From Candidatus Poribacteria bacterium (GTDB lineage: Bacteria > Poribacteria > WGA-4E > PCPOR2b): DNA of 64,000 bases. The notes beneath the pieces are model-generated. The model ran no database searches, was not told where the DNA came from, and saw nothing but the letters and a program-made list of their open reading frames with translations. The translations under genes and the position numbers were made by a program. The DNA is taken from assembly GCA_965215015.1 (NCBI GenBank), contig OZ244042.1, positions 4,640,001 to 4,704,000 on the forward strand, read 5' to 3'. Shown piece after piece: positions 1-13,609 of the stretch; positions within the stretch are counted from its first letter, which is position 1; each line of letters starts with the position of its first letter.

Positions 1-2181
1 GCTCAGGAACTGTGGCAGCACCGTCTCAATGCCCGGCTCATTCGCCACAGTTTCGTTGTCAATACCGTGGATACGCATACTCGATTGCGGAATCCTCCCC
101 GTTGGTTTGACTAGTTGATAGTAACGTTCAAGCTCACTACCGATTGCGCTCAAGCGATTTGCACCGACTTCAATAATCTCCGCACTTTTAGGGTTATTGT
201 CTATCGTTTCGAGGTCGTAGACGATCATGTCCGCGCAGTTTGGTCTTTCAAAATTACTCAACAGTCGTTGGCACAGTTTTAACGCGGTAACACTGCGAGA
301 TTGGGTGAGTCGTGATTGATTGAGTTGGAGAACGTTTGCATCTGCGTTGACCGCGGATCCGATCAAGATTGTTGTATCTTCGCGTTCAAGCAGGTCTCCA
401 AAGTCTCCGATTAGGATGTTGACTCCACTTTCAACCGTTGTTGGGTTTAAAGGTGAACCGGGAGGTAGTAGATCTATATAAATGGAAAGGTCAAGGTACC
501 GCGCTAGGGTGTTCCTGATGATGTGGGCAGCACAGTAGGAATCAACCCCGTAGCTTGCCATCAGATAGATGGGGTCCTCGCGGTTAATTGCACTATACAG
601 GATATCTGTCGCAGCGCGGAGGCCGGGGATTTCCGGTTGATTCTCAATCTCGTGCACGTCTTCTGACTGGTAGGGGCTGCGTCTGTGTGCAAGGAGATTA
701 AAGAGTTTGTTGACAATTGTGTGGATCTTCTCCCCTTCGATCCCCTCATGAAAATTATCAAGCTGTTGGAAAAATTGCCGCACATTCCAACGGGTGAGGG
801 GACCTACATCATTCGGATAGTCCTCAATTTTTCTGAGCAATGCAATTAAGGTGATACCTTTCTGTTGTGCAAGCCACTTCAACCGGACCAACGTCAAGTC
901 GTCAATTAGCCGCTGTGGAAAATTGACTGCCATTTCAATATCGCGGGGAAGTTCCCACTGGATGGAGTTCAGGTAGGAGAGAATCCTTTGTGCGTGTTCC
1001 TCGTGAAAGGAGTTAACTCGCCCAATGCGCTGAAACCCGATACGCTCTTGGTGCAGCCAATCAACTAACGTCTCTGCTAATTGGTGGGTACGGTAGAAAA
1101 CCGCGATGTCACCGTATGAGCAGTATCGTCCCTCCACAAGTTTCCGAATCAACGTGATGATATGGTTTGCTTCTGCATCAGGGGTGTCTAGCGTGTAGTG
1201 ATAGAGGGTGTTTCCAGCGTCCTTATGCGTTTTCAGAACGCTCTCTTTCTGACGTGTGTTTTTGGCGATCACCGCCCCTGCGGCTCGCAGAATCTTCTCG
1301 CTGCACCGATAATGCTCCTCTAACTCAACCACTACTGGGTTGAAATCTTCTTTGAACTGTTCAATATATTGGGGACTGGAACCGCGCCAGCTATAGATGG
1401 ATTGATCCCCATCCGCGACGACCATCATGTTATGTTGAGGCGCGCGGGAAAGGAGTTTGAGCAAGGTATACTGTGCGGCGTTGATATCTTGGTATTCATC
1501 AACGAGGATGAAGCGGATGTCGTTGTGGTACTTTGCACGAACATCAGGCACCTGTTCAAGCACTTCGACTGACTTAGAGATTAGATCATCAAAGTCGAGC
1601 GCGTTATGAGAAGCGAGCTTTGTCTGATAGGCTTTGAGTAGGTCAGCAATATCTTGCACTTGCACTGGGTCGTCGATAACTGTTCCATCGCCTAGCCAAA
1701 TTTCATCTTGATCAGCGGTTGGATCTTCCAACCTCATCTTGTATGTGCCGATGATGTTACGCAGCATCCAAGGGGGATAGGCAATCCGATTTTGACGAAG
1801 TTCGCGTAGGCATTCGATCAACACTTCGTCCTGTGTCTCCTGACTGAAAATTACAAAGTTTACCCCTAAGCCAATCTGCTCCGCGTGTTCGCGGAGCAGA
1901 CGGACGCAAAAGGCGTGAAAGGTGTGGATACGGACTTCCAACCCTTGCGTTGTACCGAGCAGCTCTTTGATCCGATTAAGCATCTCCTGTGCGGCCTTGT
2001 TCGTGAAGGTAACAGCGAAAATCTGTTGAGGTGCTATTTGATGGTTTCGGATCAGATGTGCAATTCGGTGAGTGATGACCTTTGTTTTGCCGGTGCCAGG
2101 GCCCGCTACAACGAGCATGGCGCCATCAGTATGGGTTGCGGCTTCCTGTTGCTTCTCATTGAGTTCTTGTAGGAGTTCCAT
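1..2181 (-). CDS. UvrD/PcrA/Rep-family SF1 helicase with internal degenerate RecJ-like DHH domain and DnaQ/DEDDh exonuclease domain; 3' part runs off the window
   Basis: Manual translation from ATG 2181 (alternative in-frame ATG at 2205): MELLQELNEKQQEAATHTDGAMLVVAGPGTGKTKVITHRIAHL (Q motif and Walker A), AVTFTNKAA, STFHAF, ILVDEYQD, VADGDQSIYSWRG, LEEHYRC. Later in the same frame: MIVYDLETIDNNPKSAEIIEVGA...IHGIDNETVANEP. The frame is open to the window edge, so it is absent from the ORF track. Confidence 0.92.
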   Translation of the reverse strand, partial: MELLQELNEKQQEAATHTDGAMLVVAGPGTGKTKVITHRIAHLIRNHQIAPQQIFAVTFTNKAAQEMLNRIKELLGTTQGLEVRIHTFHAFCVRLLREHAEQIGLGVNFVIFSQETQDEVLIECLRELRQNRIAYPPWMLRNIIGTYKMRLEDPTADQDEIWLGDGTVIDDPVQVQDIADLLKAYQTKLASHNALDFDDLISKSVEVLEQVPDVRAKYHNDIRFILVDEYQDINAAQYTLLKLLSRAPQHNMMVVADGDQSIYSWRGSSPQYIEQFKEDFNPVVVELEEHYRCSEKILRAAGAVIAKNTRQKESVLKTHKDAGNTLYHYTLDTPDAEANHIITLIRKLVEGRYCSYGDIAVFYRTHQLAETLVDWLHQERIGFQRIGRVNSFHEEHAQRILSYLNSIQWELPRDIEMAVNFPQRLIDDLTLVRLKWLAQQKGITLIALLRKIEDYPNDVGPLTRWNVRQFFQQLDNFHEGIEGEKIHTIVNKLFNLLAHRRSPYQSEDVHEIENQPEIPGLRAATDILYSAINREDPIYLMASYGVDSYCAAHIIRNTLARYLDLSIYIDLLPPGSPLNPTTVESGVNILIGDFGDLLEREDTTILIGSAVNADANVLQLNQSRLTQSRSVTALKLCQRLLSNFERPNCADMIVYDLETIDNNPKSAEIIEVGANRLSAIGSELERYYQLVKPTGRIPQSSMRIHGIDNETVANEPGIETVLPQFLS

Positions 2182-2545: not shown

Positions 2546-4495
2546 TTACCCCTCTGCTAATGCCTCAAGGGCGTTCAGGTGCCAGTCTGGGTCCTCCAGT
2601 GCCTCGTACACAACGCCACCCTCAATGTTTCGAGGCATGGGGAGACCCAACAGATGGCAGAGCGTCGGGGCGACATCAATTACCCGCACCTGCCGCTGAA
2701 GTGCCACGCCTTGACGGACGCCCGCACCGGACAAAATGAACGTCGAGTGCTGTCCACCGATGCCAAAGCTGACGGAGGGGAGTTGCTTGCCATGTGCGCC
2801 ATCAAACTCCGGGCGCAATGCGTAAACCACATCCCCTACAAGGTCACTGGTGAGGTTAACCATTTCGGCGTCTGCATGTGTCAGCGCGAGTGAGAACGGA
2901 TGTCCGCCGGTCTCAGAATCTTTATAGGCGTGAAGGGCGGCAATAATCTCACGCTGGGTAGCTTCATAGTCAGCAGGATCAACGATACCGTGAGGTTCAC
3001 GCCCTTTGAGATTGATAAAAACATGCACCAAGCCGACGTTGATGGCACGGGTCTTCGACCAATCTATCTCTCGTGTTCCTTCCTTGTAGACGATGAAGCC
3101 CGCTTCTGCAAGGACTTCGGCGATATCTACCGAACGAAATTGGTTGGGTGTCCCGCCGTGGTCCGAGCACACGAGGATAACTGTGTCATCGTCCGCGAGT
3201 TCCATCACGCGCCCGATCATCCGGTCAACCGAAGCGTAAGTGCGAATGACACCATCTCGGCAGCGTTGGATTGTTTCAGGGGATGCACCGCTTATCTCGT
3301 CCGCCTGACTCAAGAAGAAGTGACTTGTATAGTCTGGCGCGTGGGTTTCCATCATGAGGACATCCCACTCGCGTGTCTTGGTCAGATGCCCTGCGACATC
3401 GGCAAGCCGTTGATGGTGATATTCCAACGACTCAAAGTAGGTGTCATCATCTATTACACCCAAGGCATCCCGTCCGGGGTTTTGCAGAAAAGTACCGATT
3501 TCCTGATCAATCTCCTGTGCAATTTCGTCGGGAACGGTATAACCTTCCCGGGGCCAAATCTGCGGGACGAATAGTTCAAACGCATCAGCATTTGGGGTGA
3601 GTGTAATCAGTTTCATGCGGACATACCCGTCAACATCAGCCCCATCAATCTCGAAAGTATCCAGCCAAAAATCGCTCCAGTCTCCCACACTAAGCTCCGT
3701 AACGGTATCAGTCCCAGATCGACTGCGGCATATCCGCACGCGATCGTAGCCGTTCTCACCGGTGGCGTAGATCAGTCCGAAGAAGGGCTTGGGAGTGCCA
3801 TGTTTACCACGGTTCATATCTTGCCGACCTCGCGTGAGCGGCTGGATTGTCAATTCAACTTCGCGCGGCGGTTGTGTCGAATCGGGTAGATCCCCCCACC
3901 CTTTCTCATCAATTGATTCCACTGTGACCGGATCGACTTCGCTAACTGTTTGTAATCCGCTTGGATCCAATGTCTCCGGATCTCGTTCTCCACCAATTGG
4001 GCGAGGTGTCCATTTTCCACTAACGAAGAGGTGATAGCCTGCAACCTGATGGTGGTTCGATACGCCTGGTCCCGTGCCTTCCACTTGGATGCCTGTGGTT
4101 ACGGTTGGAGGCCAAGACATCTCCCACTTGACAAGGATCGGTTTTCGGCCAGCGCGCTCCACCAGATTCCAGAGGTATTCGGATTGACACAGTCTCGTGT
4201 TGATACCCCAAACGGTTTGATCTAGCCGCTCCCCCAAAGCACGGATATTGAAATCCATTACCCGGTGGGTGCCGGGCCATGAACCGGTACTGAGTGCTGT
4301 CCATCCCGGTGGAGTCAGGGTTGGAAAAACGCCAATCATGGGTCGAAAAACCCCTTGTTCTAGCAGCCTCCCCATGTTTGGGGCGTGCCCCCAATCGATC
4401 ACATTTTTGACCAGTTCCATGCTGGCACCGTCCATGCCAATTACAATCGCACGTTTCGCTGGAGACAGACTTGATACATTAGAATTTGTACGCAT
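2546..4495 (-). CDS. Alkaline phosphatase superfamily / type I phosphodiesterase-nucleotide pyrophosphatase
   Basis: IVIGMDGAS, PTLTPPGWTALSTG (Thr nucleophile), CSDHGG and DVAPTL motifs. Confidence 0.85.
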   Translation of the reverse strand: MRTNSNVSSLSPAKRAIVIGMDGASMELVKNVIDWGHAPNMGRLLEQGVFRPMIGVFPTLTPPGWTALSTGSWPGTHRVMDFNIRALGERLDQTVWGINTRLCQSEYLWNLVERAGRKPILVKWEMSWPPTVTTGIQVEGTGPGVSNHHQVAGYHLFVSGKWTPRPIGGERDPETLDPSGLQTVSEVDPVTVESIDEKGWGDLPDSTQPPREVELTIQPLTRGRQDMNRGKHGTPKPFFGLIYATGENGYDRVRICRSRSGTDTVTELSVGDWSDFWLDTFEIDGADVDGYVRMKLITLTPNADAFELFVPQIWPREGYTVPDEIAQEIDQEIGTFLQNPGRDALGVIDDDTYFESLEYHHQRLADVAGHLTKTREWDVLMMETHAPDYTSHFFLSQADEISGASPETIQRCRDGVIRTYASVDRMIGRVMELADDDTVILVCSDHGGTPNQFRSVDIAEVLAEAGFIVYKEGTREIDWSKTRAINVGLVHVFINLKGREPHGIVDPADYEATQREIIAALHAYKDSETGGHPFSLALTHADAEMVNLTSDLVGDVVYALRPEFDGAHGKQLPSVSFGIGGQHSTFILSGAGVRQGVALQRQVRVIDVAPTLCHLLGLPMPRNIEGGVVYEALEDPDWHLNALEALAEG

Positions 4496-4781
4496 TACAA
4501 GTTCCTTCCTTCTGAGATTTTCGGATTCCTTAAGTGGTTTAAATTGATTTTATCACAGCTCCATTAATCCGTCAATCACTAGAGGGATACAATTTGAGAT
4601 TTACCACTTGTCAAGAACAGGGCAGATCGAGTATATTATCATAATGCAATTCTTAATCGGAATGTTGCTGTAATTTGCGTCTCTAAATCTATGCTTTCAC
4701 AATTGTATGGATTGATTCAAAATCAAGTGATATAATGTGTTTCACTCAAGTTTACGAATTAACCAACCACGGAGAAAATCG

Positions 4782-10746: not shown

Positions 10747-11523
10747 ATGAAGGCTAAACTTTTTCAAAGATTGGTGCTCCTTCTTTTTTGCGTATCCTTA
10801 CCCTGCTTGATGGGAGCGTATCGTATTACGCCTACAGAGGGATTGAGTATCTCCTCTATGGTTAAACTCTCCAATCTGGTGTTTACCGGAGAAGTTGTCG
10901 AGATGGAATTTGTCTTTCGAGAGGATCTACCACCTCAGTTTACGACAGATATCACCGTTGAGGTCGAAGCGATGATTAAAGGAACACCCAATGCCGGAGA
11001 AAACCGCGTGAAATTCATGATCCGTGGCGGAGAGGGTGTCCATCCCACAACAGGAGAGTCGCTGATATGTATTGCAACAGGTGCACCGCAGTTTGAAATA
11101 GGGGAGAAGGTGCTTATCTTCTTGCTAAGACACACGCGTTTGATAGAACACAGGCGTTTAAGGCAGCTGTCACCGCCCCCCTATGAGGGGCTGGCACCGG
11201 TGTGGTGGGGAAACAGAAAGATAGTGGATGAAAAAGTATCTGTGCCCTATACGTTCCAGAAAAGATTATTTGAGAATGGGCAGTGGAGAGATAAAACTCA
11301 AATGAGGGATATTCATCTCCCAATTGATTTGGCACGGCAGATTGCTCAAGCGGCATTGCAAAATGCCGAAGCCGTTTCAACGGTAGAAGAGCAGATTAGG
11401 ACCTTTGCTAAAAATGCCCCGGTGGTGCCAGGTGAGAACCCCATGCCGGGTCAGGTGCTTCTAGACAGTGTTGAGGCAGCAATCACACCCATTCTCCCTC
11501 AGGAACGAATGGAGGAACAATAG
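10747..11523 (+). CDS. Secreted hypothetical protein A1, probable TIMP/NTR-like OB-fold
   Basis: Signal peptide; pattern SNLVFTGEVV..TDITVEVEAMIKG..VKFMIRGG..GAPQFEIGEKVLIFL; GGAGG RBS. Confidence 0.7.
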   Translation: MKAKLFQRLVLLLFCVSLPCLMGAYRITPTEGLSISSMVKLSNLVFTGEVVEMEFVFREDLPPQFTTDITVEVEAMIKGTPNAGENRVKFMIRGGEGVHPTTGESLICIATGAPQFEIGEKVLIFLLRHTRLIEHRRLRQLSPPPYEGLAPVWWGNRKIVDEKVSVPYTFQKRLFENGQWRDKTQMRDIHLPIDLARQIAQAALQNAEAVSTVEEQIRTFAKNAPVVPGENPMPGQVLLDSVEAAITPILPQERMEEQ

Positions 11524-12859: not shown

Positions 12860-13609
12860 ATGCAGACTAAACTTTTTCAAAGATTGGTGCTTCTTCTTTT
12901 TTGCGTATCCTTACCCTGCTGGGCATATCCTACTCTACCTACAGAGGGATTAAGCATATCTTCTATGATTGATATGTCGGTTCTGGCGTTTACCGGAGCA
13001 GTTGTCGAGATGGAATTTGTCTTTCGAGAGAATCTACCACCTCAGTTTACGACAGATATTACCATTGAGATCGAAGCGATGATTAAAGGGACACCCAATG
13101 CCGGAGAAAACCGCGTGAAATTCATGATTCCCGGTGGAGAGGGTGTCTATCCCACAACAGGGGAGTCGCTGATATGTGTTGTACCGGATGCACCGAAGTT
13201 TGGAATAGGGGACAAGGTGTTTATCTTCCTGAGAAAACACAAGCGTTTAGCTAGACTTCCAGTCCCTCATGGAGGACTGATAACGGGATGGTGGGGAAAA
13301 AGAGAGATAGTGGATGAAAAAGTATCTGTGCCCTATACGTTCCAGAAAAGATTATTTGAGAATGGGCAGTGGAGAGATAAAACTCAAATGAGGGATATTC
13401 ATCTCCCAATTGATTTGGCACGGCAGATTGCTCAAGCGGCATTGCAAAATGCCGAAGCCGTTTCAACGGTAGAAGAGCAGATTAGGACCTTTGCTAAAAA
13501 TGCCCCGGTGGTGCCAGGTGAGAACCCCATGCCGGGTCAGGTGCTTCTAGACAGTGTTGAGGCAGCAATCACACCCATTCTCCCTCAGGAACGAATGGAG
13601 GAACAATAA
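12860..13609 (+). CDS. Secreted hypothetical protein A2, paralog of A1 (TIMP/NTR-like OB-fold)
   Basis: Signal peptide; N-terminal half diverged from A1, last ~100 aa identical. Confidence 0.7.
   Translation: MQTKLFQRLVLLLFCVSLPCWAYPTLPTEGLSISSMIDMSVLAFTGAVVEMEFVFRENLPPQFTTDITIEIEAMIKGTPNAGENRVKFMIPGGEGVYPTTGESLICVVPDAPKFGIGDKVFIFLRKHKRLARLPVPHGGLITGWWGKREIVDEKVSVPYTFQKRLFENGQWRDKTQMRDIHLPIDLARQIAQAALQNAEAVSTVEEQIRTFAKNAPVVPGENPMPGQVLLDSVEAAITPILPQERMEEQ

Follow-up and report, generated by a model that had tools for sequence, protein, structure and literature searches.

The window analyzed here is a stretch of 64,000 nucleotides from a Candidatus Poribacteria bacterium, and its left end is occupied by a minus-strand reading frame that runs from position 2181 and is still open at the window edge. 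Followed into the genome, the frame encodes a protein of 1051 amino acids (G000:C1:4639026-4642181). Residues 1 to 727 lie within the window (1..2181), and open reading frame, Pfam, and profile alignment data assign this 5' two-thirds to a UvrD/PcrA-family helicase gene; the remainder of the gene takes up 975 bases past the left edge (G000:C1:4639026-4640000, minus strand). An insertion of ~395 residues cuts the helicase 2B subdomain near residue 500, and the layout is nested at three levels, with a DEDDh exonuclease (residues 651 to 812) inside a RecJ DHH relic (residues 505 to 648 and ~822 to 868) inside 2B. The part beyond the window completes the DEDDh domain and encodes the RecJ motif IV helices (~822 to 868), the second half of 2B (~896 to 945), and motifs V and VI. 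A preliminary description of the window had proposed a single-chain helicase-nuclease, and an intact SF1A motif set and a DEDDh set are indeed present in one frame; the tandem order that it gave to the parts was incorrect, as the helicase motifs resume at residues ~896 to 1047, after the insert (Pfam and PcrA profile), and RecJ similarity resumes after the exonuclease. By sequence, the protein is confirmed as a helicase of the UvrD/PcrA type in which a catalytically dead RecJ piece, itself carrying an intact-looking 3'-5' exonuclease, divides the 2B subdomain. A frameshift or an assembly chimera is ruled out by 241 homologous proteins and by unbroken frames across the phylum. We found no description of a nested helicase-RecJ-DEDDh fusion in the literature, while supplementary domain-architecture tables might list it.

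The helicase parts were mapped with a profile built from 76 ordinary PcrA/UvrD proteins, in which positions up to 532 align to residues up to 499 and positions ~533 to 687 align to residues ~896 to 1047. Subdomains 1A and 1B span residues 1 to 290 (1312..2181, minus strand; PF00580 at residues 7 to 281, E = 1e-81) and include Walker A residues K32/T33 (window 2083-2103), the DE pair at 228-229, and the motif III glutamine, Q260. The first part of 2A (residues 291 to 385; 1027..1311, minus strand) was placed by alignment to PcrA (1PJR), UvrD1 (9DCI), and the PcrA/UvrD profile, and the first half of 2B (residues 386 to 500; 682..1026, minus strand), which ends at the insertion, was placed by the PcrA profile. 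The four-subdomain layout with 2B inserted in 2A is thus recovered at the level of sequence. In an alignment of 190 family sequences (168 of Poribacteria type, 12 of Chloroflexota type, and 10 of other, Calditrichota or Gemmatimonadota, types), K32, T33, D228, E229, Q260, R292, and R1007, which represent Walker A, DExx, the motif III glutamine, and the Arg fingers, are invariant wherever covered, and the SF1A motor, which appears intact, is predicted to drive ATP-dependent 3'-5' translocation and unwinding. The protein falls below the curated cutoffs of the pcrA, uvrD, and rep models (TIGR01073, 508 versus 911 bits; TIGR01075, 354 versus 1144 bits). A FastTree branch with a support of 99 places 49 family motors on one side and 77 ordinary PcrA/UvrD proteins on the other, from which we infer that the fusion arose once; a profile search of genome contigs returned ordinary PcrA at 79 of 80 loci, and these served only as an outgroup.

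Two elements of ordinary PcrA-type helicases are missing. At the place of the duplex-contacting G-I-G of 2B, the protein has L-I-D (residues 425 to 427; 901..909, minus strand; alignment to 1PJR and 9DCI), and the third position is D or E in nearly all family sequences. No GIG occurs among the sequences listed, which comprise 160 of the 168 of Poribacteria type and all 22 others, whereas PxRG[IV]G is kept in 60 of the 76 ordinary PcrA/UvrD proteins. The protein also ends 45 residues past R1007, ~70 residues short of the canonical PcrA paralog of the same genome, and no C-terminal Tudor domain is present, the tail past R1007 measuring 23 to 61 residues among the sequences listed. The contact of GIG with duplex DNA is described as inhibitory in PMC11912403, which also reports that the Tudor domain binds RNA polymerase, and according to PMC13646824, UvrD1 is activated when 2B is deleted.

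The first part of the RecJ relic, residues 505 to 648 (238..669, minus strand), was delineated with hhalign and the family alignment. The three segments in which RecJ likeness had originally been noted are present at residues 522 to 559 (window 618-505), 586 to 595 (426-397), and 628 to 641 (300-259, originally given as ~303-262) and are followed by VYDLETID (654 to 661). This likeness proved to exceed chance: the insert alignment matched 30 same-phylum RecJs with a probability of 93.6% (E = 2.2e-7; score, 55.7), against a maximum score of 25.3 in 60 column-shuffled and 12 reversed controls, and a more diverse RecJ alignment with 98.6% (E = 1.4e-15). The homology of the relic to RecJ is significant (hhalign, 99%; E = 5e-18), and all 19 nonfamily matches among 1.8 billion proteins were RecJ. 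The alignment is colinear over RecJ profile positions 37 to 249 of 556, where it stops, and covers the entry helix, the motif I strand and helix, the motif II strand, the AFKL helix, and the motif IV helices. Most of the signal comes from the first segment and from the ALKL helix, SRSVTALKLCQRLL (residues 628 to 641; 259..300, minus strand), which corresponds to the GVAFKLAQAL helix of RecJ and runs straight into the exonuclease. The GVNILIGDFG strand (residues 586 to 595; 397..426, minus strand), compared with the motif II strand LLITVDCG, is weakly conserved, and the middle segment alone (586 to 627) is weak against RecJ (second half of the insert, 3.9%; E = 0.011). C-terminal to the exonuclease (~822 to 868), the RecJ match became visible only after Chloroflexota-type sequences were added and the range was narrowed (33.5% with all sequences and 81.8% with those of Chloroflexota type); segment 820 to 950 of the Poribacteria sequences alone gave no RecJ match (0.5%). 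Pfam DHH did not match the full protein or any of 23 insert sequences at an E value of ≤10; among 18,943 six-frame genome open reading frames, RecJ came first after the insert itself with an E value of 0.42, which is nonsignificant alone; PDB profile matches, with CDC45L in the top seven (E = 0.25), all had E values of at least 0.026 and count as rank evidence only; and ESM Atlas features pointed to DHH clusters (0.82), which we treat as no more than a lead, and yielded no usable match for the whole module.

The loss of the catalytic Asp and DHH residues had been proposed, and this holds for the DxDxDG motif (0 of 190 family sequences) and the DHH motif, with DHH-like triplets in only 5 of 190 inserts; it does not hold for one aspartate. 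In motif I, S543-Y-G-V-D547 (541..555, minus strand) stands for D-Y-D-x-D, and D547, the equivalent of Asp83, is the only survivor of the six metal ligands given for Deinococcus radiodurans RecJ in PMC4846377 (Asp79, Asp81, Asp83, Asp135, His159, and Asp223). Aspartate stands at this position in 166 of the 168 sequences of Poribacteria type, in all 12 of Chloroflexota type, and in none of the 10 others; D593 is aspartate in 106 of 168 Poribacteria-type sequences, its equivalence to the motif II aspartate being uncertain. A search of the 190 sequences for one whose DHH site is intact returned none, and Pfam and profile alignment revealed no counterpart of DHHA1, the OB fold, the linker helix, motif V, or the Arg109/Tyr114 loop in the fusion protein. 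The relic is a catalytically dead, RecJ-derived piece with a predicted DHH-type fold.

Such a fold was initially suggested to bind or channel single-stranded DNA (ssDNA), which would take place between motor and exonuclease, as is reported for Cdc45 in CMG; PMC4846377 describes Cdc45 as a dead RecJ orthologue said to keep ssDNA binding. The retention of D547 (178 of 180 Poribacteria- and Chloroflexota-type sequences) would fit this, as would Y544, which aligns with Tyr80, the base-stacking tyrosine of D. radiodurans RecJ; of the 168 Poribacteria-type sequences, 118 keep Y there and 26 have H. However, D547 and Y544 are both missing from the Calditrichota- and Gemmatimonadota-type sequences, the relic is acidic (median net charge, -7; range, -18 to +1; 168 sequences), and Cdc45 retains both DHH and DHHA1 (PMC5484177), whereas the fusion has neither DHHA1 nor the OB fold, linker helix, and motif V; we regard a DNA channel as unlikely. 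An acidic surface would fit protein binding better than DNA binding, the Tudor-length tail is gone, and Cdc45 binds GINS through its DHH domain (PMC5484177). The relic could, on this basis, be a docking surface that stands in for the Tudor domain or for the contact between the 2B subdomains of a dimer and brings the enzyme to a partner such as SSB, MutL, or a part of the replisome. Against this, conservation within the module is lowest in the exposed, formerly catalytic middle of the relic (mean identity, 0.22), the relic varies from 86 to 196 residues across the family (down to 86 to 112 in two clades), and there is no conserved neighbor gene, making docking a somewhat poorer candidate still. 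The relic helix that flanks the exonuclease, by comparison, is conserved like the motor (mean identity, 0.56 versus 0.54).

The first half of the DnaQ-type DEDDh domain lies in the window (residues 651 to 727; 1..231, minus strand), and the DEDDh assignment made from this portion was borne out by a PF00929 match at residues 653 to 809 (E = 9e-29; 101.6 bits versus a cutoff of 24). D656 and E658 (window 216-208, minus strand) and, beyond the window, D743, H796, and D801 are all intact in 185 of 190 family sequences. The domain looks active, and 3'-5' activity, with a preference for DNA over RNA, is predicted. Four Poribacteria-type sequences have a dead exonuclease with motor and relic kept, suggesting that the motor is of value alone. 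DEDDh domains can be RNases, PF00929 covers both RNases and DNases, and PcrA has been linked to transcription conflicts, so that a motor stripping R-loops with a DEDDh domain trimming the RNA 3' end could be imagined. The best named matches of the exonuclease are the PolC exonuclease, DnaQ, and the DinG exonuclease, and the domain that PMC11912403 reports to bind RNA polymerase is the very one lost; an RNA or RNA-DNA hybrid substrate is accordingly quite improbable.

In this closed genome, PF00929 matches nothing but the fusion, and in 150 genomes of the phylum, 143 of 145 matches fell within fusion-sized frames of 787 to 1151 amino acids. This raises the question of whether it is a replisome-associated accessory helicase with a DnaQ-type proofreader or second proofreader, the latter being a role described for a noncanonical DnaQ in mycobacteria in PMC11348249. 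However, eleven genomes of at least 90% completeness lack both the insert and a PF00929 match, no conserved clamp-binding motif was found (clamp-like pentamers occur in 2 of 190 sequences, at differing places), and the PHP domain of the genome's DnaE has five His, three Asp/Glu, and one Cys candidates (positions mapped by eye), the make-up of an active PHP exonuclease (PMC5636811). A proofreading role appears improbable, if a little less so than the RNA substrate.

The insert matches 158 of 176 Poribacteria genomes, mostly in single copy, and relatives of the fusion occur in Chloroflexota, Calditrichota, and Gemmatimonadota. Searches of four closed genomes from a single genus did not find the fusion, and a stop-interrupted remnant is present in another. 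The insert profile had no match in 5 genomes of other phyla, and 5 further genomes had ordinary RecJ only (matched by the insert profile in 3 of 5). Besides the fusion, the genome encodes a canonical PcrA with a Tudor-like tail, ExoVII, elsewhere an AddA-like gene, and an intact recJ, for which a search had been proposed. MutS is present in 124 of 124 genomes, and those lacking the fusion keep mutS. There was no linkage to recJ or a fixed partner gene in 23 loci and no recurring neighbor among 28 scanned at an E value of ≤1e-12; conserved gene neighbors thus give no pointer to a pathway. None of 196 matching plasmid records covered 80% of the module, and no relative was confirmed in viral contigs. 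The best reading is that the fusion is a dispensable, accessory second PcrA/UvrD paralog. PADLOC GajB models match its helicase core (best E value, 4e-103), as would be expected if it served in anti-phage defense as the helicase of a system like Gabija, but the PcrA model matches better (4e-152), gajA, which encodes an OLD-family nuclease, is not among the 28 neighbors, and a near-universal, mostly single-copy gene without confirmed viral relatives makes this the least credible of the alternatives.

A candidate donor of the module survives in Elusimicrobiota, where a RecJ::DEDDh protein of ~750 amino acids, likewise without a description that we could find in the literature, has the order DHH-RNase_T-DHHA1-OB and no helicase (rows P0199-P0219 and L304-L315). 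Both of its active sites look intact, and 29 of 33 sequences pass all eight motif patterns. The exonuclease lies between the same two RecJ helices as in the fusion, the spacing from K635 to D656 is 21 residues in all 190 family and all 33 RecJ::DEDDh sequences, the two junction spacings compare as 21 with 21 and 38 with 39 residues, and the BLAST alignment is ungapped across the first junction. The exonucleases group in one DEDDh tree (SH-aLRT, 81) and in a later one (98/93) that was built afterwards with long-branch sequences excluded and a simpler model, whereas a careful 55-sequence tree united them in 0 of 200 bootstrap trees (AU P = 0.03). Plain RecJs from the phylum of the relic also give it higher scores than the Elusimicrobiota proteins do (medians, 21.5 versus 11.4 and 11.8 versus 6.4 bits). 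With the trees mixed, an intact RecJ::DEDDh of the Elusimicrobiota kind is the likely donor type.

We consider it somewhat more probable than not that the protein is an accessory one-chain 3'-5' unwind-and-degrade enzyme in which the relic, captured with RecJ::DnaQ, is a structural pedestal. The motor would load at a nick or 3' tail and travel 3'-5', and the exonuclease, riding on the swiveling 2B arm, would degrade the strand left behind the motor from its 3' end, which would give motor and nuclease a common polarity. Two RecJ helices would hold the ends of the exonuclease, and another two would bridge the break in 2B. Presumably, 2B captured the N-terminal half of a dual-nuclease gene once, and the 5'-3' RecJ half, redundant and severed from DHHA1, may then have decayed. 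A likely task in repair (mismatch repair or fork or flap processing) would be 3'-directed excision or the trimming of 3' ends, for which PcrA with ExoVII and RecJ would be the backup. Loss of GIG may, in addition, lift 2B autoinhibition, and a monomer may thereby unwind DNA. It is conceivable, though we hold it to be doubtful, that the protein is a de-repressed, monomer-active SF1A helicase-exonuclease that took half of a two-polarity RecJ::DnaQ into 2B, kept the polarity-matched nuclease with RecJ reduced to a pseudo-enzyme strut, and abandoned both controls of all studied UvrD-family helicases, the GIG contact with duplex DNA and dimerization; if so, a single chain would both license unwinding and destroy what it produces.

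Whether 2B drives or inhibits unwinding has been debated for decades, with engineered deletions and cross-links as tools (PMC11912403 and PMC13646824). The family is a natural variant, with GIG lost and a nuclease placed on 2B, and would allow the autoinhibition model to be tested directly. It has been kept across most of one phylum and in three others, and most genomes of that phylum have no other DnaQ-type exonuclease that we could detect. It is also a clear case of domains nested by insertion at three levels for which a candidate donor type still exists. If unwinding is coupled to 3'-5' degradation, a single-enzyme reagent may be possible; if the relic is only inert packing, the family is a good evolutionary example and modest biological news.

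Compared with known systems, the fusion shares all motor motifs, the 1A-1B-2A-2B layout, and both 2B halves with PcrA, UvrD, Rep, and UvrD1 (1PJR, 9DCI, 2IS1, and 1UAA) and differs from them in the ~395-residue insert, xxD for GIG, and the missing Tudor tail. The relic is homologous to the N-terminal DHH domain of bacterial RecJ (TIGR00644; 1IR6, 2ZXO, 5F54, and 8Y30), in which, according to PMC4846377, the DNA-binding groove is flanked by DHH and DHHA1 and accompanied by an OB fold and a helical gateway; in the relic, this domain is interrupted by DEDDh, embedded in a helicase, and stripped of the DHH motif and most ligands. Elusimicrobiota RecJ::DEDDh, in contrast, has a live-looking RecJ site, DHHA1, and OB and lacks the helicase. 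Like Cdc45 and archaeal GAN in CMG (PMC5484177), the relic is a predicted RecJ fold that has lost catalytic residues and would serve a helicase, a bacterial parallel that we take as analogy, not membership: Cdc45 is a separate subunit of the hexameric MCM helicase and keeps DHHA1, whereas the relic is truncated and covalently part of an SF1A 2B subdomain. In RecB and AddA, the nuclease is C-terminal and RecB type. DinG, an SF2 5'-3' helicase, has a terminal exonuclease, unlike the fusion. The accounts in PMC12345164, PMC3270479, and PMC12525004 have helicase and nuclease in one chain in exonuclease-DinG (Staphylococcus aureus and Bacillus subtilis), whose nuclease likewise belongs to the DEDDh 3'-5' exonucleases, and in RecB, AddA, and AdnAB, and it is the placement of the nuclease inside 2B that sets the fusion apart from all of these.

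The minus-strand frame that begins at window position 2181 is uninterrupted to the window edge and ends at G000:C1:4639026 on the source contig, giving a protein of 1051 residues (P0001). Pfam places UvrD-helicase at residues 7-281, UvrD_C across residues 286-1016, UvrD_C_2 at residues 956-1015, and the DEDDh exonuclease domain RNase_T at residues 653-809. Against a profile built from 76 ordinary PcrA/UvrD sequences, residues 2-499 match up to profile position 532 and the match restarts at position ~533 with residue ~896; 2B is thus cut once, near residue 500, and loses almost nothing while holding an insert of ~395 residues. The preliminary description had read a UvrD helicase, a degenerate RecJ-like DHH domain (segments at window 618-505, 426-397, and 300-259), and a DnaQ exonuclease in succession. 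All three are present, but they are nested rather than consecutive, with 2B resuming at ~896 and the RecJ match resuming after the exonuclease. The layout is a three-deep nesting, helicase[2B[RecJ-DHH[DEDDh]]].

Pfam detects no RecJ or DHH domain in P0001 or in any of 23 insert sequences (0/23). An hhalign comparison of 24 diverse inserts with 30 RecJs from the same phylum gave a probability of 93.6% (E value of 2.2e-7, score of 55.7), while 60 column shuffles scored at most 25.3 and three other P0001 regions scored <18. With an insert profile of 23 rows, the top seven of 177,635 PDB sequences were five RecJ or RecJ-sized entries, a sixth RecJ, and CDC45L, at E values of only 0.026 to 0.25; 5X4H/5X4I, named uncharacterized in the database, we take to be archaeal RecJ. 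Among 1.84 billion representatives searched with the insert profile, 50 proteins were found at an E value of ≤0.001, made up of 31 members or fragments of the family plus 19 further proteins (best E value of 1.3e-7), the latter all RecJ: 18 matched TIGR00644 recJ, and the remaining one contains DYDIDG and matches the RecJ profile at 8e-18. Used as a plain query, the insert likewise matched within the recJ gene of genome G061. Taken together, these matches indicate that the RecJ likeness is real and bear out the RecJ-like segments first read in the UvrD frame. The homology extends beyond the exonuclease, where divergent family members read LPLVAxG...VPLxDENxAL, equivalent to LDLVALGTVADxxPLxGENR of RecJ. 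This segment matched RecJ positions 207-249 at 81.8% (E value of 1.1e-5) with 11 Chloroflexota-type rows and matched RecJ at 33.5% (E value of 4e-4) with all rows, and the part preceding the exonuclease reached 98.6%. Joined, the two parts aligned over 186 columns with RecJ positions 37-249 (of 556), for a probability of 99.0% (E value of 5.4e-18); shuffled controls, 40 per comparison, scored at most 22.

Among the 190 distinct rows of the family, every row that covers the catalytic residues of the helicase has them. The exonuclease residues D656, E658, D743, H796, and D801 are intact in 164/168 Poribacteria-type, 11/12 Chloroflexota-type, 8/8 Calditrichota-type, and 2/2 Gemmatimonadota-type rows, these labels resting on few names (Poribacteria; Anaerolineae, Thermomicrobiales, and a Chloroflexota phylum search; one Caldithrix; Gemmatimonadota cluster members). 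At four loci (L082, L089, L094, and L083) the exonuclease is dead (D-A-D-x-I or wholly degenerate) and the motor intact, a second pseudonuclease within the first. The RecJ metal ligands are listed in PMC4846377 as Asp79, Asp81, Asp83, Asp135, His159, and Asp223. As initially proposed, the catalytic residues are lost: only the equivalent of Asp83, D547, is retained (166/168 Poribacteria-type and 12/12 Chloroflexota-type rows; 0/10 in the other two clades), DxDxDG occurs in 0/190 rows, and DHH-like triplets occur in 5/190.

The further proposal that the dead DHH fold binds or channels single-stranded DNA fits less well. At Y544, which aligns with the base-stacking Tyr80, 144/168 rows have Y or H, a point in favor of a channel. 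However, the family has no counterpart of DHHA1, the linker helix, or the OB fold, the parts from which RecJ builds its DNA groove; the relic, 86 to 196 residues long, is acidic (median net charge of -7); and mean identity is 0.56 in its exonuclease-flanking helix, against 0.54 in the motor, and only 0.22 in its middle. These features favor a pedestal over a channel, which we consider unlikely; that the relic is a docking surface seems more doubtful still.

Within the phylum, the insert is matched in 158/176 genomes (124/133 good genomes and 25/31 genera), and a separate recJ is found in 174/176. The source genome also encodes a canonical PcrA, an AddA-like helicase, a further SF1 helicase, and ExoVII, with motif matches to MutS, MutL, UvrAB, Mfd, RecG, and PolA. 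It additionally contains a second family A polymerase-like frame (G000:C1:745633-747738, 702 amino acids [aa]) and an SF1 helicase of 923 aa that has a nuclease-like stretch inside it (G000:C1:4876282-4879053). Elsewhere in the window, paralogous secreted-looking open reading frames at 10747-11523 and 12860-13609 (258 and 249 aa), each followed by small open reading frames, are identical over their last ~85 residues and represent a recent local duplication. An 1860-aa open frame in genome G025 contains a recJ match (G025:C1:2708478), one of five there.

The embedded exonuclease is the sole PF00929 match in the source genome. In 150 genomes of at least 90% completeness, PF00929 occurs in 138, with 143/145 matches within frames of 787 to 1151 aa (frame size was recorded for all matches and adjacency to the insert by spot check). 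Of the 12 genomes with no PF00929 match, 11 lack the insert as well, among them four closed genomes from a single genus, and the remaining one has the fusion with its exonuclease dead. Whole-protein searches of five insert-negative genomes found PcrA-sized frames only, with a remnant in one. The stop-interrupted remnant at G018:C14:165691-166269 matches residues 810 to 1000, a loss by pseudogenization. The fusion enzyme is thus widespread yet dispensable. All 124 genomes tested keep mutS; four from a genus without the fusion (G033:C1:472683, G034:C1:3666623, G035:C1:3349924, and G036:C1:494374) have mutS frames of 1277 to 1302 aa versus ~900, whose best piece covers model positions 2 to 606 only, which suggests that an element such as an intein has been inserted. 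Three ~865-aa proteins (P0280, P0304, and P0316) fuse PF00929 to RNase PH, KH, and S1, joining a DEDDh exonuclease to PNPase-type domains. The DnaE PHP domain of the source genome has five His, three Asp/Glu, and one Cys (positions mapped by eye), the makeup of an active PHP proofreader as described in PMC5636811; a proofreading role for the fusion enzyme is very unlikely. In Chloroflexota the family is rare (2/401 sampled genomes). In a FastTree tree, three partial or duplicate rows left out, 49 family motors and 77 ordinary homologs fell on separate sides of one branch (support of 99). Across 23 family loci, no neighbors common between families and no adjacent recJ were found. Two genomes of one genus carry tandem duplicates of the fusion gene (L092:4475-11061 and L093:4468-11044), the second copies evolving faster (47 to 48% versus 63 to 65% identity to P0001) with exonuclease residues kept.

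PQRLID of P0001 aligns to PxRGIG of 1PJR and 9DCI. PxRG[IV]G is kept in 60/76 ordinary PcrA/UvrD homologs, and GIG is absent among the classes printed for 160/168 Poribacteria-type rows and all 22 others. In the inhibited monomer, GIG touches duplex DNA in competition with 2B-2B dimerization, and the Tudor domain binds RNA polymerase, according to PMC11912403; P0001 ends 45 residues past R1007, which leaves no room for a Tudor domain. UvrD1 without 2B is activated, yet its repair role is harmed, as stated in PMC13646824. The family helicases may therefore be active as monomers. We envisage a single chain whose motor and exonuclease, both 3'-5', work on one and the same strand starting at a nick or 3' tail, with the relic coupling the nuclease to the swiveling 2B arm; the 5'-3' RecJ half would have decayed because it was severed from DHHA1 while a whole recJ was still present. 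Our best guess, held at somewhat better than even, is that this would serve 3'-directed excision in repair. We give little credence to RNA as the substrate, and a role in defense is scarcely believable, since GajB models match the motor only.

Some Elusimicrobiota RecJs carry an inserted exonuclease (RecJ::DEDDh). A metagenome DNA pattern (FKL and then DxETTGL, allowed first spacing of 15 to 24) matched 118 stretches, of which 4 were RecJ with an inserted DEDDh, 2 at full length; a search with one RecJ::DEDDh yielded 19 proteins that combine DHH, RNase_T, DHHA1, and RecJ_OB, of which three are named Elusimicrobia. One-piece matches occur in 27/151 Elusimicrobiota genomes (12 of the 27 checked). 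Many RecJ frames of 665 to 710 aa (e.g., G727:C64, G635:C23, and G592:C10) match the RecJ::DEDDh query in two pieces, which suggests that the insert at this site has been shortened or has decayed. Both genes that flank the RecJ::DEDDh (L213:6-890 and 3183-4496; L189:2-772 and 3174-4478) are shared by these two loci, at 56% and 48% identity. The AFKL lysine lies 21 residues from the first catalytic Asp in 33/33 RecJ::DEDDh and 190/190 family rows, the 33 counting as one observation given that they are relatives and the pattern preset the spacing to 15 to 24. The catalytic His lies 38 residues from the motif IV Gly in 19/19 measurable RecJ::DEDDh rows (14 unmatched by the pattern) and 39 in 190/190 family rows, and BLAST aligns the first RecJ-exonuclease junction without gaps. 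Exonuclease trees give a mixed signal: a quick tree of 156 rows grouped the family with 19/20 RecJ::DEDDh and P0222 (SH-aLRT of 81), a careful tree of a 55-row subset did not recover the grouping (AU P value of 0.03), and a later 35-row LG+G4 tree, long branches left out, gave it 98/93. P0222 is a stand-alone 431-aa protein with a degenerate RecJ-like N terminus, an AFKL-like helix, an intact-looking DEDDh, and motif-IV-like helices, lacking helicase and DHHA1; it is the module by itself, possibly as an intermediate or split form. One shared insertion probably lies behind both families, two separate insertions into the same permissive loop being a lesser but real prospect. The relic scores higher against plain RecJs from within its phylum than against the Elusimicrobiota RecJ::DEDDh, which are therefore at best cousins of the donor.

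Helicase-nuclease fusions, including exonuclease-DinG, are already known. The architecture was not recognized in the preliminary description, and in mostly open-access main texts we found no published UvrD helicase with a DEDDh in 2B, including in Poribacteria, and no RecJ with an inserted DnaQ/DEDDh, including in Elusimicrobiota, a paper on DinG being among those that turned up. A dead RecJ fold in the service of a helicase does have a precedent in Cdc45, as described in PMC5484177.
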